A stretch of 64,000 nt of DNA. It comes from an uncultured Cellvibrionaceae bacterium. Lineage in GTDB: Bacteria; Pseudomonadota; Gammaproteobacteria; Pseudomonadales; Cellvibrionaceae. Positions within the stretch are counted from its first letter, which is position 1, and every line of letters starts with the position of its first letter. Positions 722 through 4,100 of the stretch are shown here, piece by piece. The DNA lies in contig CAYWCW010000009.1 of NCBI GenBank assembly GCA_964456865.1, positions 15,494-79,493 on the forward strand. The letters run 5' to 3'. The translations under genes and the position numbers were made by a program. The notes under the pieces were generated by a model. That model searched no databases, was not told the DNA's origin, and saw nothing but the letters and a program-made list of their open reading frames with translations.

Positions 722-1489
722 CTAGTGCTTCTTTTCGGTCAGATATTTCCAATACCGCTTGGGCACATGCCGCAGGTGCAGCTTGATCTTGTGGCGTTCC
801 TTGATATTCACCGACTGGAAGTATTGTTTCCACAGCTGCTGGTAACCATCTTCCATCCCATCCACAGAAGATTGAATACTGTCCATGGCATCGCTCAGGA
901 TGGGCGAGAAAGCATCGACAAACGTCATATCCTGCAGGTCATAGTACAACCCGTAATCCCTGGTGGTATCAAAAATTACCCAGGGCTGGTCGGCGTAGCG
1001 GCGGCAGAAGTGATCGCCAATCAACGGAATGACATTGAAATCCGGGCTGATGGCGGCGTAATAAATGCCATTGGCGGCCTTTTGGAAGCGAACAAAGGCG
1101 TGCATGCGATGGACTTCGCGGCCGATCATCTTGTTGACCTGGGCGCTGTGGAGCACGTCCGGGTTGGCGAAATTATCCAGGACATTCGGGTTATTTTGAC
1201 GGACGAGCAGCTGCGCAAGCCGGAAGATATGCATTTCCATCCCCGGTAATTCCGACAGGTACAGATGATAAACCAGCTTGCCTGCCTTGCCGTCCGAGCG
1301 CGCATCCAGCCCTTTGATCACGCGTTCGGCTTTTGCGATATCCGTTTGTACTGGATGGATATCATCAAGCAATGATGCTTGATATGCCGCTTGATTCACG
1401 ATATCCACCGGCACAACACGATCGGCAAAACAATCGAAGATCGCTGTCAGCAGGCCATCGAAACTGCCGTCATACAGGCAAAGGCTCAC
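722..1489 (-). CDS. TIGR03915/DUF4130-type putative DNA metabolism/repair protein
   Basis: YDGSFDGLLTAIF start, REVHRMHAFVRF, HF..RYADQPWVIFD, LWKQYFQSVNIKER, VPKRYWKYLTE; directly downstream of the radical SAM gene. Confidence 0.85.
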   Translation of the reverse strand: MSLCLYDGSFDGLLTAIFDCFADRVVPVDIVNQAAYQASLLDDIHPVQTDIAKAERVIKGLDARSDGKAGKLVYHLYLSELPGMEMHIFRLAQLLVRQNNPNVLDNFANPDVLHSAQVNKMIGREVHRMHAFVRFQKAANGIYYAAISPDFNVIPLIGDHFCRRYADQPWVIFDTTRDYGLYYDLQDMTFVDAFSPILSDAMDSIQSSVDGMEDGYQQLWKQYFQSVNIKERHKIKLHLRHVPKRYWKYLTEKKH

Positions 1490-1492
1490 AGG

Positions 1493-2737
1493 TCACCCAA
1501 ACAGGCTCAGTTGCGGTGTCTGCCGCGCAACAGATTCGCTCGACAGAATCAACTGGCGCAGCCGTTTCGTGTCGTAATCTTTGTGGGAACCGGCAATACC
1601 GGGGCACACAATAAAGTAGCGTGCCCGTTTCAACACAACGCCCATGCGCTGCAAGTGATCCAGGGTCAGACGCTGATGCATGCGTGACTTGACGATTTTC
1701 ATCGCCGACTTCACGCCGATGCCTGGTACACGCAAAATCAATTCATAGTCGGCTCTGTTGATATCCACCGGGAATTTTTCCGGATTGCGCAAGGCATAGC
1801 TGACTTTCGGGTCGACGTCCAGGTCCAGGTTGGGATGCGCCTCGCTGACAATCTCAGCGACAGAGAATTTATAGAAACGCAGCAGCCAATCCGCCTGATA
1901 CACGCGATTTTCCCGCACCAGGGGTGGTGCGGTTAACGCAGGCACACGGTTATCTGTCGCAATCGGCACATAACCTGAGTAATAAACCCGCTTGAGCCGC
2001 TGCTGTTTGTAGAGGCCATCCGCCAAATTCAAAATCTGTAGATCATTCTCCGGCGACGCGCCGACAATCAGCTGCGTGCTTTGTCCCGCCGGCAAAAACA
2101 ACGGTGTTTTTTTAATGTGCTTTTTCTCATCCATGTAGCGCGTCTTTTCATCGCTCAGGTAATTCATGGGGGTGATGATGTTCTTGTAATTTTTCTCCGG
2201 TGCGACTTTTTTCAGGCTCATCTCCGATGGGATTTCAATATTCACACTCAGGCGATCCGCATACAAACCGGCTTCATGCAATAACTCCGGACTCGCGCCG
2301 GGAATCGCTTTCAGGTGAATATACCCGTTGAAGTTATGCTGTTGGCGCAGGGTTTTGGCCACGCGTACCAATCGTTCCATGGTGTGATCCGCATCTTTAA
2401 AGATGCCGGAACTGAGGAACAGGCCTTCGATGTAATTGCGGCGATAGAAATTGATCGTAAGGTCGACCACCTCTTCCACCGTAAACGCCGCGCGGCGTAC
2501 ATCATTGCTGCGCCGGCTTACGCAGTAAGCGCAATCAAAGATGCAGTGATTGGTAAACAGGATCTTCAGCAGGGAGACGCAGCGGCCATCTTCGGTGTAA
2601 CTGTGGCAAATGCCCATGCCATCGGAGTTGCCAAGGCCCTTATTGTGGTTGGCGCGCCTGCTGCCGCTGGACGAGCAGGATGCATCGTATTTGGCGGCAT
2701 CGGATAGGATGGTGAGCTTTTCAAGGGTTCGGTTCAT
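1493..2737 (-). CDS. Putative DNA modification/repair radical SAM protein with helix-hairpin-helix (TIGR03916-type)
   Basis: AAKYDASCSSSG, GICHSYTEDGRCVSLLKIL, CxxxCxxC (CIFDCAYC), HhH RVPGIGVKSA. Confidence 0.9.
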   Translation of the reverse strand: MNRTLEKLTILSDAAKYDASCSSSGSRRANHNKGLGNSDGMGICHSYTEDGRCVSLLKILFTNHCIFDCAYCVSRRSNDVRRAAFTVEEVVDLTINFYRRNYIEGLFLSSGIFKDADHTMERLVRVAKTLRQQHNFNGYIHLKAIPGASPELLHEAGLYADRLSVNIEIPSEMSLKKVAPEKNYKNIITPMNYLSDEKTRYMDEKKHIKKTPLFLPAGQSTQLIVGASPENDLQILNLADGLYKQQRLKRVYYSGYVPIATDNRVPALTAPPLVRENRVYQADWLLRFYKFSVAEIVSEAHPNLDLDVDPKVSYALRNPEKFPVDINRADYELILRVPGIGVKSAMKIVKSRMHQRLTLDHLQRMGVVLKRARYFIVCPGIAGSHKDYDTKRLRQLILSSESVARQTPQLSLFG

Positions 2738-2757
2738 GACTCAACATAACACGGATG

Positions 2758-2777
2758 TACTGTATTTGCATACAGTA
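2758..2777. promoter_or_regulatory. LexA (SOS) box, gammaproteobacterial type
   Basis: TACTGTATTTGCATACAGTA = CTGT-N8-ACAG with consensus TA flanks, 20 nt upstream of the radical SAM ATG. Confidence 0.85.
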
Positions 2778-2800
2778 CATCCGTGTCGTATGGGAGTCAA
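2772..2800 (-). promoter_or_regulatory. sigma70 promoter of radical SAM/TIGR03915 operon
   Basis: Minus strand TTGACT (2800-2795), 17-nt spacer, TACTGT (2777-2772); the -10 lies inside the LexA box. Confidence 0.7.
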
Positions 2801-2886
2801 GGCGGGAAATGTGGGCAATGTTCAGCAGAGCCGGGCTGGTGCCTGCCCCGGGACGAATCCCAACAGCTTGATTCAAGGGCGGTTTT

Positions 2887-4029
2887 TCATGGCGGATCGC
2901 GATCAATGGCTCCCGGGTCAGGGCGGTGGCCCGAATCAACTATTCTCTTTTCCAGCACCACCCCGCACTCCAGATGATGGGTATAGGGAAACTGGTCAAA
3001 TACCGCGAAATCCGTGATCTCATGGGTTTTCACCAGAGTGTCCAGGTTCGCGCGCAGTGTCTGCGGATTGCAGGATATATACACGATCCGTTCAAACCGC
3101 TGGCAAATACCCAGGGTCGCATCATCCAGTCCGGCGCGCGGCGGGTCCACAAAGATATTGCGGAAGTCATAATCATCCAGGTCGATGTGGCGCAGCCGGA
3201 AGAAAGGCCGCACTTTATCCAGGGCTTGCGCAAACTCCTCCGCCGCAAGCCGGGCGATGGCGATATTCGCAATGCCATTGCGTGCGATATTGAATTGCGC
3301 GGAGTCCACCGAGGTACTCGATACCTCGGTCGCCAGCACCTTGCGGAAATTGCATGACAGCGGCAGGGTGAAGTTGCCATTGCCACAATACAGTTCCACC
3401 AGATCGCCGGTGAAGCCGCGGGTTTTTTCCACTGCCCAGTTCAGCATCTTTTCACAGACGGCTGCGTTGGGCTGGGTGAAGCCGCCCTCCACCTGCTGGT
3501 ACTCGACATACCGCCCGTCCACCTGGAACCTTTCCATCACATAGTCGCGGCCCAGCACGATTTTTTGTTTGCGGCTGCGGCCCACCAGCTGGATATCCAG
3601 GGTCTTGCGCAGGGTGTCCGCCGCCGCCTGCCAATGGTCATCCAGGGGTTTGTGATAGATCAGCGTCACCAGCGCCTCGCCATGCAAGCTGGTGAGGAAG
3701 TCCACCTGGTACAGCTTGTGTTTGAGCAAGGGCTCGCTGTTCAACGCCTCGACCAGCGGTGGGATCAGTTGATTGATCCGCGCTGAACCGATGGGGAAGT
3801 CGTGTACCGCGACGGGTGTGCGCCCGTGATCGCCACCGAACATCACCAGCTCCAATGAGTCCCCCTTGTGCCAGGCACGGAACTCGGCGCGCATGCGGAA
3901 GTGTTCGCGGGGGGATTCGACTACCTGGATATCCGGTGGCAACAACCCGGTAAAATCAGCGCGCAATTGCGCGAGTTTGGCGGCAAGTTGCTGGTTGTAG
4001 GCAGCGGGGTCGAACACAAAAGAGGTCAT
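2887..4029 (-). CDS. trmA: tRNA (uracil-54-C5)-methyltransferase TrmA
   Basis: HFRMRAEFRAWH, FTQPNA, LVELYCGNGNF, FVDPPRAG, YISCNP, DQFPYTHHLECG; start taken at second Met (4029). Confidence 0.92.
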   Translation of the reverse strand: MTSFVFDPAAYNQQLAAKLAQLRADFTGLLPPDIQVVESPREHFRMRAEFRAWHKGDSLELVMFGGDHGRTPVAVHDFPIGSARINQLIPPLVEALNSEPLLKHKLYQVDFLTSLHGEALVTLIYHKPLDDHWQAAADTLRKTLDIQLVGRSRKQKIVLGRDYVMERFQVDGRYVEYQQVEGGFTQPNAAVCEKMLNWAVEKTRGFTGDLVELYCGNGNFTLPLSCNFRKVLATEVSSTSVDSAQFNIARNGIANIAIARLAAEEFAQALDKVRPFFRLRHIDLDDYDFRNIFVDPPRAGLDDATLGICQRFERIVYISCNPQTLRANLDTLVKTHEITDFAVFDQFPYTHHLECGVVLEKRIVDSGHRPDPGAIDRDPP

Positions 4030-4100
4030 GCGGCAGTCTGTTGTCAAGGGTCGGATAACGCCCCGCGGGGCGGGGCGCCATCTTAACCCAGCAGGTAAAA

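Follow-up and report, generated by a model that had tools for sequence, protein, structure and literature searches.

What does a radical SAM gene with a helix-hairpin-helix module do together with the DUF4130 gene that follows it, and is the pair wired into the SOS response, as an earlier note on this DNA had claimed? We addressed the question in a 64-kb stretch, called here the window, of a 3.8-Mb metagenome-assembled genome from the Cellvibrionaceae, and compared the locus with a second copy in the same assembly and with its orthologues.

A radical SAM gene and its DUF4130 partner

The radical SAM/helix-hairpin-helix gene occupies positions 1493–2737 of the minus strand, with its ATG at 2737–2735, and encodes a protein of 414 aa that matches NCBIfam TIGR03916 at 656.7 bits (cut-off 343.5) over profile positions 3–402 of 415. 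The Pfam Radical_SAM domain is recognized in this product with an E-value of 4.8e-10, and HHH_3 matches residues 323–353 (E 5.4e-6) at 26.9 bits, just under the gathering score of 27; the helix-hairpin-helix region of the AF2 model has a pLDDT above 90. The CxxxCxxC cluster motif is made up of C65, C69, and C72, which are invariant in a 24-sequence alignment, as are three more cysteines, C21, C44, and C53.

The partner gene (722–1489, minus strand, 255 aa) begins with a GTG located 3 nt past the stop codon of the radical SAM gene, and the two genes are likewise adjacent in the second copy and in most of the orthologous loci checked. Its product scores 261.1 bits against TIGR03915 (cut-off 112.25) and 174 bits, versus 27, against DUF4130 (PF13566, 2.4e-51). 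The TIGR03916 and TIGR03915 scores are both above cut-off, and the earlier note had already called the pairing a named family. In a minority of cases, in other lineages, the TIGR03915-family partner is fused to a family-4 UDG-like domain (TIGR03914), a fusion that is not obligatory. Here, Pfam detects DUF4130 alone across the 255 aa and no UDG domain, and the sole UDG-family match in the whole genome is an unlinked 228-aa ORF. Upstream of the cassette and co-directional with it lies trmA, the gene of the tRNA U54 methyltransferase (2887–4047, minus strand; TIGR02143, 510 bits), from which any read-through into the cassette would originate.

LexA box and putative promoter

Ahead of the radical SAM ATG, the minus strand carries a putative −35 hexamer, TTGACT (2800–2795), contained in CTTGACTC (2794–2801, minus strand), followed after a 17-nt spacer by a putative −10, TACTGT (2777–2772), which is the left half of a LexA (SOS) box on the gene-proximal strand. 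The box, TACTGTATTTGCATACAGTA as read on the plus strand (2758–2777), is a perfect 20-mer that ends 20 nt before the ATG. The earlier note had described the same promoter with its −10 inside the box, and this is read directly in the sequence: the spacing and the hexamers stand, while the position that it implied for TTGACT (2799–2794) is one base off, which is immaterial. A generic promoter scan passes over TTGACT-17-TACTGT, since TACTGT shares only three of its six positions with TATAAT.

Two instances of the core motif CTGT-N8-ACAG lie in the 64-kb window, where 0.61 would be expected; as a count alone, this is weak. The full motif TACTGT-N8-ACAGTA has just two exact sites in the 3.8-Mb genome for about 0.1 expected by our own estimate from base composition, and both are located 19–20 nt upstream of TIGR03916 start codons, one per cassette copy. 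The host possesses a canonical LexA (TIGR00498, 4e-72) whose gene has two boxes of the same motif upstream, and its recA carries the box TACTGTTTGCGCATACAGGT 71 nt upstream; recA boxes are found across the family. The third-best LexA box of the genome lies upstream of an SplB-like radical SAM gene. The three best boxes thus front three radical SAM operons, an arrangement suggesting that in Cellvibrionaceae a substantial and tightly gated part of the SOS response consists of radical-based DNA chemistry.

As far as sequence can show, LexA control of the cassette is supported, and the proposed SOS wiring is borne out at this level by the occurrence of the same motif at the host recA and lexA and by the conservation of the box at orthologues. 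DNA of the locus was found in four sequencing runs, all of them DNA metagenomes and none RNA.

Conservation and distribution of the cassette

Scanning the orthologous upstream regions for the box, a check proposed in the earlier note, recovered the exact CTGT-N8-ACAG motif at the same position in 34 of 42 non-redundant gammaproteobacterial loci and a version with one mismatch in a further six of the 42. In the same set, TTGAC is present at a 16–17-nt spacing in 10 loci. When six Cellvibrio-type cassettes are compared, no non-coding block other than the −35 hexamer and the LexA box is invariant; CTTGACTC is unchanged in all six, and everything upstream of it is unrelated among them. The genes upstream of the cassette vary from genome to genome, and the box is also kept in loci whose upstream gene is divergent. 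In other phyla, the same gene lies behind the local LexA motif, which in Bacteroidota is CTAA-N5-TTAG or GGA-N5-TCC, in agreement with PMC8565304.

Within the Gammaproteobacteria the family is rare, with 2/299 outside Cellvibrionaceae versus 30/120 inside. A tree of 24 radical SAM proteins groups the gammaproteobacterial sequences in one supported clade (97/96), beside rows from Rhodothermota and Bacteroidota; we draw no donor from this tree because its sampling from peptide-pattern matches is biased.

Two copies of the cassette

A second, diverged copy of the cassette is present on contig C30 (46.7 kb) of the same assembly. The homology between the two copies, at 80% nucleotide identity, starts at the −35 and stops at the stop codon, and the surrounding genomic sites differ. 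Judged by these limits, the two-gene unit behaves as a portable cassette. An integron attC-like or other recombination site was considered and dropped, as the palindrome described below is 5′-terminal, no integrase or repeat is seen at the 3′ end, and the homology stops at the stop codon.

The genome being metagenome-assembled, the two copies might not come from one cell, the C30 copy having been binned by mistake from a related strain of Cellvibrio, and two full copies were not found in any other Cellvibrionaceae genome sampled. We nevertheless regard such an artefact as improbable: beyond the 2-kb cassette, nothing of C30 recurs in the rest of the assembly, its tetranucleotide make-up is typical (rank 12 of 41 contigs), and the estimated contamination of the genome is just 0.77%.

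An extended palindrome around the operator

What is novel at this locus is that the operator forms the core of a perfect 38-bp palindrome with covarying flanks. The palindrome (2749–2786, both strands) is composed of two 17-nt arms, 2749–2765 and 2770–2786, and a 4-nt loop; in a repeat search, it is centred on the LexA box, to which it adds 9 bp per side, and its DNA fold has an energy of −19.6 kcal/mol (z −8.8). A perfect extension of at least 6 bp is observed in 10 of the 42 orthologous loci, with unrelated flank sequences, and the operator palindrome as a whole reaches 30–38 bp; one additional extended palindrome occurs in another family. The flank changes between orthologues are compensatory, as testified by a covariation score of 0.333 versus 0.157 in shuffles, matched by none of 500. 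No palindromic extension is seen in 30 recA operators or in 15 SplB-like operators, and none was found at the orthologues of other phyla, where the stems reach at most 9 bp.

In a transcript reading through from upstream, the RNA fold predicts a long hairpin at 2735–2801 (minus strand) with an energy of −39 kcal/mol and a z-score of −9.9, none of 200 shuffles being equally stable. In the predicted outer stem, the −35 region (2799–2794) pairs with GAGUCA (2742–2737), taking in the A of the start codon, and the predicted accessibility of the start region is lower in the read-through than in the promoter-initiated RNA. Rfam returned, on 2500–3000, only sub-threshold matches to microRNA-like hairpins, which we take as chance.

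The reading of the extension that we prefer, with something short of an even chance of being right, is insulation. Read-through transcripts, which include the two arms, would fold up as a hairpin and thereby be terminated or silenced, and transcripts from the LexA-controlled promoter would start within the loop, about 7 nt past TACTGT, and remain open. In a broader form, which we put forward tentatively and at clearly less than even likelihood, the LexA operator has been built into a selected hairpin of 30–38 bp, and the cassette is a self-contained, portable SOS module shielded from neighbouring transcription: incoming transcription would be stopped or made untranslatable, so that a radical enzyme of potential hazard could be turned on by LexA release alone. 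The case for insulation is not firm. A proper U-tract occurs at a single extended locus, the orthologue L064, where the same structure is followed by a T6 tract; the gain in accessibility for promoter-initiated RNA is not specific to the extension (0.18 at extended versus 0.15 at non-extended loci); and a G.U versus A.C asymmetry in the palindrome flanks, which would separate RNA-level from DNA-level selection, is not seen (12 versus 11).

Alternatively, the extended palindrome could be a functionless mutational by-product, LexA control being unaffected, a possibility that we hold to be on the unlikely side. Mutation by template switching is well known to correct quasipalindromes, and a near-perfect 20-bp operator that hairpins during replication could have one arm copied onto the other, so that symmetry is kept or lengthened unselected. 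Such an origin would fit the nearly exclusive Watson–Crick pairing of the extensions, devoid of strand-specific G.U bias, and the lack of a specific effect in the comparison of RBS accessibility, as well as the perfect 8-nt inner arms present in every extended locus. Relative to the gene, the 4-nt centre can face either way, reading GCAA in the window and TTGC in the orthologous loci L016 and L017, as expected of hairpin-mediated events. However, SplB-like operators of the same genomes have equally good inner arms, TACTGTTTTTATATACAGTA for instance, yet are extended in 0 of 15 cases, and the orthologues of other phyla are devoid of such an extension. Moreover, a co-directional upstream ORF, by crude ORF calls in related genomes, is present at 10 of 10 extended loci, which would not be expected of a process that is purely mutational.

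It is also conceivable that the palindrome serves mainly to terminate transcription of the upstream gene, here trmA, its likeness to a LexA box being secondary and the cassette being driven otherwise. The palindrome is the sole strong hairpin after trmA, most long perfect palindromes of the host genome are terminators, and the L064 version has its T6 tract. Yet for the window this reading was rejected, and we consider it very improbable overall: a terminator scan of 2738–2887 finds no canonical terminator between trmA and the cassette, and no intrinsic terminator is called at 2738–2801, where the tail GUUAUGUUG contains no U-tract. In addition, the upstream gene changes from one genome to the next without any change in the box or the −35, the box matches the host recA and lexA operators, and it is retained where the upstream gene is divergent and needs no terminator. 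If the extension does function as insulation, a covarying palindrome would offer repressed genes that move laterally a simple, generally applicable protection against read-through.

Predicted complex and its possible chemistry

The AF2 model of the radical SAM protein has a mean pLDDT of 75.5, and its best PDB fold matches are generic radical SAM enzymes, HydE, BioB, LipA, and viperin, which provide no functional lead. Spore photoproduct lyase (SPL) does not appear within the 50 best fold matches, and the SPL family model gives no match to the protein in a profile search; PDB sequence searches return no match for either the radical SAM protein or its DUF4130 partner. The model of the partner (mean pLDDT 84.6) shows weak, DHH/DHHA1-like fold matches to PAP phosphatase, RecJ, and Cdc45, with a best E-value of 1e-3 and TM scores of 0.3–0.4, a likeness already present in the preprint 10.64898/2026.08.19.745780. 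The two proteins are predicted to bind each other: their modelled complex scores 0.80 versus 0.01 for the best control. Of 78 solved complexes, 51 attained that mark, as did 2 of 108 mismatched pairs, and an AF3 study of another member in the same preprint agrees with the predicted complex.

Taken together, the locus is very probably a LexA-repressed, DNA-damage-inducible two-gene operon, carried on a portable cassette, whose products are predicted to form a heterodimer. A LexA dimer would occupy the 20-bp box at 2758–2777; since the box overlaps the −10 of its own promoter, transcription would be blocked until RecA stimulates the self-cleavage of LexA. The only two perfect consensus boxes of the genome are those of the cassette copies, which points to tight repression and late induction. 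The products would form a heterodimer in which the radical SAM subunit contributes a [4Fe-4S]/SAM site, a Cys-rich N-terminus, and a C-terminal helix-hairpin-helix DNA-binding module, and the DUF4130 subunit a presumably non-catalytic, DHH-like nucleotide-binding fold.

The enzymology of the pair is pure conjecture at this stage. The earlier statement that its biochemistry is not established still holds in the literature searched. We suggest, as a doubtful but possible scheme, that the complex acts directly on damaged DNA by 5′-deoxyadenosyl-radical chemistry, with a pyrimidine-derived lesion in exposed single-stranded DNA as the likeliest target.

Instead of repairing DNA, the pair, once induced by damage, could modify or mutagenize it, for instance by altering thymine or uracil bases through radical chemistry or by marking DNA for a glycosylase to act on. 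A SAM-dependent modification of nucleic acids is the option favoured in the preprint 10.64898/2026.08.19.745780. Among the folds, the closest (HydE, BioB, LipA) belong to sulfur-insertion or modification enzymes and not to SPL, and the very tight operator would suit a dangerous activity. However, co-regulation with recA and an SplB-like lyase suits repair equally, as do the UDG-like fusions of the partner in other lineages, and we judge a modifying or mutagenic role unlikely.

Comparison with known systems

The TIGR03916/TIGR03915 families are among the most widespread damage-regulated pairs whose chemistry remains to be found. The SOS wiring of the pair is already known from other phyla, and the basic picture is unchanged by this locus. 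What it contributes is a clean example from the Gammaproteobacteria, in which the operator is E. coli-type and the group includes culturable members; as one of these, Cellvibrio sp. ARAG 10.3 (locus L017), has a copy that is 91% identical, tests of LexA binding, induction, and knock-out are straightforward.

PMC8565304 (see also its references 7 and 65) reports an SOS-regulated operon of COG4277 (TIGR03916) and COG1573-DUF4130 in Verrucomicrobia, Alphaproteobacteria (Caulobacter), and Bacteroidetes. In 2013, Aravind's group had already connected DUF4130 with the SOS network (PMC3765255), and in Acinetobacter the pair belongs to a DNA-damage regulon under the WYL activator DdaA (PMC12392091). 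The novelty that the earlier note saw in the clean regulatory evidence is overstated in view of these reports. The operons of PMC8565304 resemble the one described here in having the same two families in the same order, translationally coupled, with the local LexA operator in front. They differ in that the operator is here of the gammaproteobacterial CTGT-N8-ACAG type, the partner, often UDG-fused there, has no UDG domain, and one genome has two diverged copies and an operator extended to a palindrome of 32–38 bp. The Acinetobacter regulon likewise places radical SAM and TIGR03915-family genes in a gammaproteobacterial damage response, through an activator and in a lineage without LexA, whereas the operator described here suggests classical LexA repression.

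The SplB-like/PA0069/Rv2578c radical SAM proteins, which belong to SOS regulons (PMC3323433, PMC3765255), are also encoded behind LexA boxes: a box is present at 15 of 15 Cellvibrionaceae SplB-like copies, and that of the host gene differs from the cassette box at 1 of 20 positions. In contrast to the cassette, they are of family NF033668/COG1533 and are encoded by a single gene, with neither a DUF4130 partner nor a helix-hairpin-helix, behind an unextended operator. SPL (SplB) itself, the customary analogy for the TIGR03916 family, is a radical SAM enzyme that acts directly on DNA, an activity that the cassette protein may share; unlike SPL, the latter has a helix-hairpin-helix domain, an obligate partner, and no match to the SPL family or fold.

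The closest analogy to the proposed insulation is the fold-back inhibition of the IS10/Tn10 transposase, described by Davis, Simons and Kleckner in 1985 as cited in PMC13181058. According to that citation, the inverted repeat of external transcripts sequesters the start region, and transcripts from the element's own promoter begin inside the repeat and escape, which is how the extended palindrome might work. The cassette, like IS10, occupies varied genomic sites; unlike IS10, it shows no transposase or terminal repeats, and its inverted repeat surrounds the operator of a repressor.

Organization of the cassette and its LexA box

The window spans 15494–79493 of contig C9 in a metagenome-assembled host genome (3.8 Mb, 58% G+C), whose nearest relatives, judged by the radical SAM gene, are Cellvibrio and other Cellvibrionaceae. 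The cassette is encoded on the minus strand and composed of two genes, one for a TIGR03916 radical SAM protein of 414 residues (1493–2737; 656.7 bits against a cut-off of 343.5) and one for a TIGR03915/DUF4130 protein of 255 residues (722–1489; 261.1 bits against 112.25), which begins with GTG 3 nt past the radical SAM stop. A 149-nt spacer separates the cassette from trmA upstream (2887–4047, minus strand). In this spacer, CTTGACTC (2801–2794, minus strand) is followed by 16 more bases and then by the LexA box TACTGTATGCAAATACAGTA (2777–2758, minus strand), with 20 bases from the box to the ATG at 2737. The spacer sequence confirms the promoter and box described in the earlier note; TTGACT (2800–2795) is the putative -35 and the half-box TACTGT (2777–2772) the putative -10.

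At the scale of the 64-kb window, two CTGT-N8-ACAG sites against 0.61 expected are unremarkable. Genome-wide, the exact TACTGT-N8-ACAGTA occurs at two sites only, both 19–20 nt 5' of a TIGR03916 start codon, and the third-best site, different at 1 of 20 positions, lies 15 nt 5' of an SplB-like PA0069-family radical SAM gene; the three best LexA boxes of the genome all serve radical SAM operons. The motif is native to the host, since its canonical lexA has two boxes upstream and its recA has one 71 nt upstream.

LexA-like sites were also observed at other genes. The SplB-like gene (host contig C15, L014:1249–2494) carries TGCTGTATGCAAATACAGTA, 19/20 identical to the window box, 15 nt upstream; a LexA box was present at 15/15 SplB-like copies found in Cellvibrionaceae, and a 2012 survey saw splB regulation in Alpha- and Betaproteobacteria, not in the Gammaproteobacteria studied there (PMC3323433). 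A dcm-type DNA cytosine-5 methyltransferase gene (contig C32, L015:835–2085) has TATTGTATTTTTATACAGTA 68 nt upstream, and may be SOS-controlled or a prophage or restriction-modification remnant. On contig C24, TACTGTACAAATATACATAT lies 7 nt 5' of a DUF6942 protein gene (L011:2056–2606). Most recA promoters of Cellvibrionaceae (L081–L110) show two adjacent LexA-like boxes, e.g. TACTGTATAAAT... followed directly by TACTGTTTGC...ACAG.

The entire pair recurs in diverged form on host contig C30 (L013:850–2928), behind the same TTGACT-17-TACTGT arrangement and downstream of the gene for an AraC-family regulator. This second copy is 91% identical to the window copy in the radical SAM protein, 80% in the DUF4130 protein, and 80% at the nucleotide level, and has its own perfect LexA box inside a 32-bp perfect palindrome. 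Two full copies were found in no other Cellvibrionaceae genome sampled.

Conservation and distribution of the cassette

We compared 42 non-redundant gammaproteobacterial loci from Cellvibrionaceae, Halopseudomonas, and one Pseudomonas. An exact CTGT-N8-ACAG stands just 5' of the radical SAM gene in 34/42 of these loci, and a box with one mismatch in 6/42 more. In six Cellvibrio-type cassettes neither the -35 block nor the box varies, the sequence 5' of CTTGACTC is unrelated throughout, and the flanking genes are different in each genome. Bacteroidota orthologues carry, at the equivalent position, CTAA-N5-TTAG or GGA-N5-TCC, which match the pair of motifs that PMC8565304 gives for LexA proteins of Bacteroidetes. 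Together with the genome-wide sites and the lexA and recA boxes of the host, these upstream regions support the LexA control claimed from the window alone, and make repression of the cassette by LexA very likely on sequence grounds.

Such wiring is of a published kind. A COG1573-COG4277 operon is listed among Bacteroidetes SOS genes (PMC8565304), DUF4130 has been placed within an SOS gene-neighbourhood network (PMC3765255), and knocking out ddaA in Acinetobacter lowers basal transcription of the TIGR03915-family and radical SAM genes more than two-fold (PMC12392091). As regards the wiring, what is added here is its occurrence in Cellvibrionaceae. The pair is patchily distributed, being present in 30/120 Cellvibrionaceae genomes and rare in the rest of Gammaproteobacteria (2/299 sampled genomes). 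Cassette G+C is 52% versus 58% for the genome, with both copies low. A radical SAM tree of small, biased sampling, from which no donor is drawn, groups the gammaproteobacterial proteins in a single clade next to rows from Rhodothermota and Bacteroidota. These points bear on a possible lateral history of the cassette.

Two orthologue loci are irregular. The DUF4130 partner of one Cellvibrionaceae MAG (L016:4249–4865) aligns as two pieces, residues 1–128 and 211–254, and may be deleted in part or broken. In L127 (genome G171), the TIGR03916 match lies within a 954-residue open frame that contains a single in-frame TGA, and no clear CTGT-N8-ACAG box was found upstream; this may reflect a fusion, or another LexA motif in that lineage.

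Predicted structures of the two proteins

The radical SAM protein retains C65/C69/C72. Its model (mean pLDDT 75.5) resembles the generic radical SAM enzymes HydE, BioB, LipA, and viperin, to which the fold search points rather than to spore photoproduct lyase. The DUF4130 model (mean pLDDT 84.6) shows a weak likeness to DHH/DHHA1 proteins. The two proteins are predicted to bind each other, with a complex score of 0.80 versus 0.01 for the best of three controls, a mark reached by 51/78 solved complexes and 2/108 mismatched pairs; a 2026 preprint has predicted both a complex of DUF4130 with the radical SAM protein and a fold of DHH type (10.64898/2026.08.19.745780). The predicted interface sets the Cys-rich N-terminus and HhH region of the enzyme against the most conserved DUF4130 residues, and covers the region of C21, C44, and C53. 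These cysteines, N-terminal to the radical SAM motif, are invariant in 24 sequences from five phyla and may bind a second Fe-S cluster. No linked UDG was found at the cassette. As a tentative guess at the substrate, the pair might process, by radical chemistry, a pyrimidine lesion lying in single-stranded DNA that is exposed.

A covarying palindrome around the operator

The window box forms the centre of a perfect palindrome of 38 bp (arms 2749–2765 and 2770–2786). At least 6 perfectly complementary bp beyond the 20-bp box (maximum 14) occur at 10/42 loci, against about 0.01 expected by our own estimate of (1/4)^6 per locus, and the flanks of these ten are mutually unrelated; one further case comes from a different family of the same order. 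An extension of more than 2 bp was seen at 0/30 recA and 0/15 SplB-like operators of the same bacterial family, and none in orthologues of other phyla. In a six-sequence alignment, the flank columns change together on both sides (covariation 0.333 versus 0.157 when shuffled, reached by 0/500 shuffles), and slid registers all score far lower. Because unrelated flanks extend and covary far above chance, the symmetry must, judging from these alignments, be maintained by selection or by an arm-to-arm copying process. This covarying extension is the foremost feature raising the locus above routine, with the duplicated cassette and the three radical SAM boxes.

The upstream gene is co-directional at 10/10 extended loci, and where that gene is divergent (roughly nine loci) no extension was seen, a comparison made on crude ORF calls in related genomes. 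In the window, the trmA read-through transcript has a predicted fold of -39 kcal/mol (z -9.9), in whose outer stem the -35 region pairs with GAGUCA and the A of AUG. A transcript from the predicted promoter would start in the loop, without the left arm. At L064 (genome G117), the box 5' of the TIGR03916 gene sits in a hairpin extended by 14 bp per side and followed by TTTTTT, which gives a complete intrinsic-terminator shape containing an operator.

Support for a fold-back reading is limited, since a U-tract was found among the extended loci at L064 only, calculated start-region accessibility is no stronger in them, and the palindrome flanks show no G.U strand bias. A serious rival, which we hold less likely than not, is that the palindrome is neutral in origin and arose by hairpin-templated correction. 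Fold-back-like insulation would suit this cassette, whose homology runs from the -35 to the stop codon and whose genomic site differs in every genome. The predicted read-through hairpin is similar to the fold-back inhibition of IS10, by which, according to Davis et al. 1985 as cited in PMC13181058, that element ignores outside promoters.
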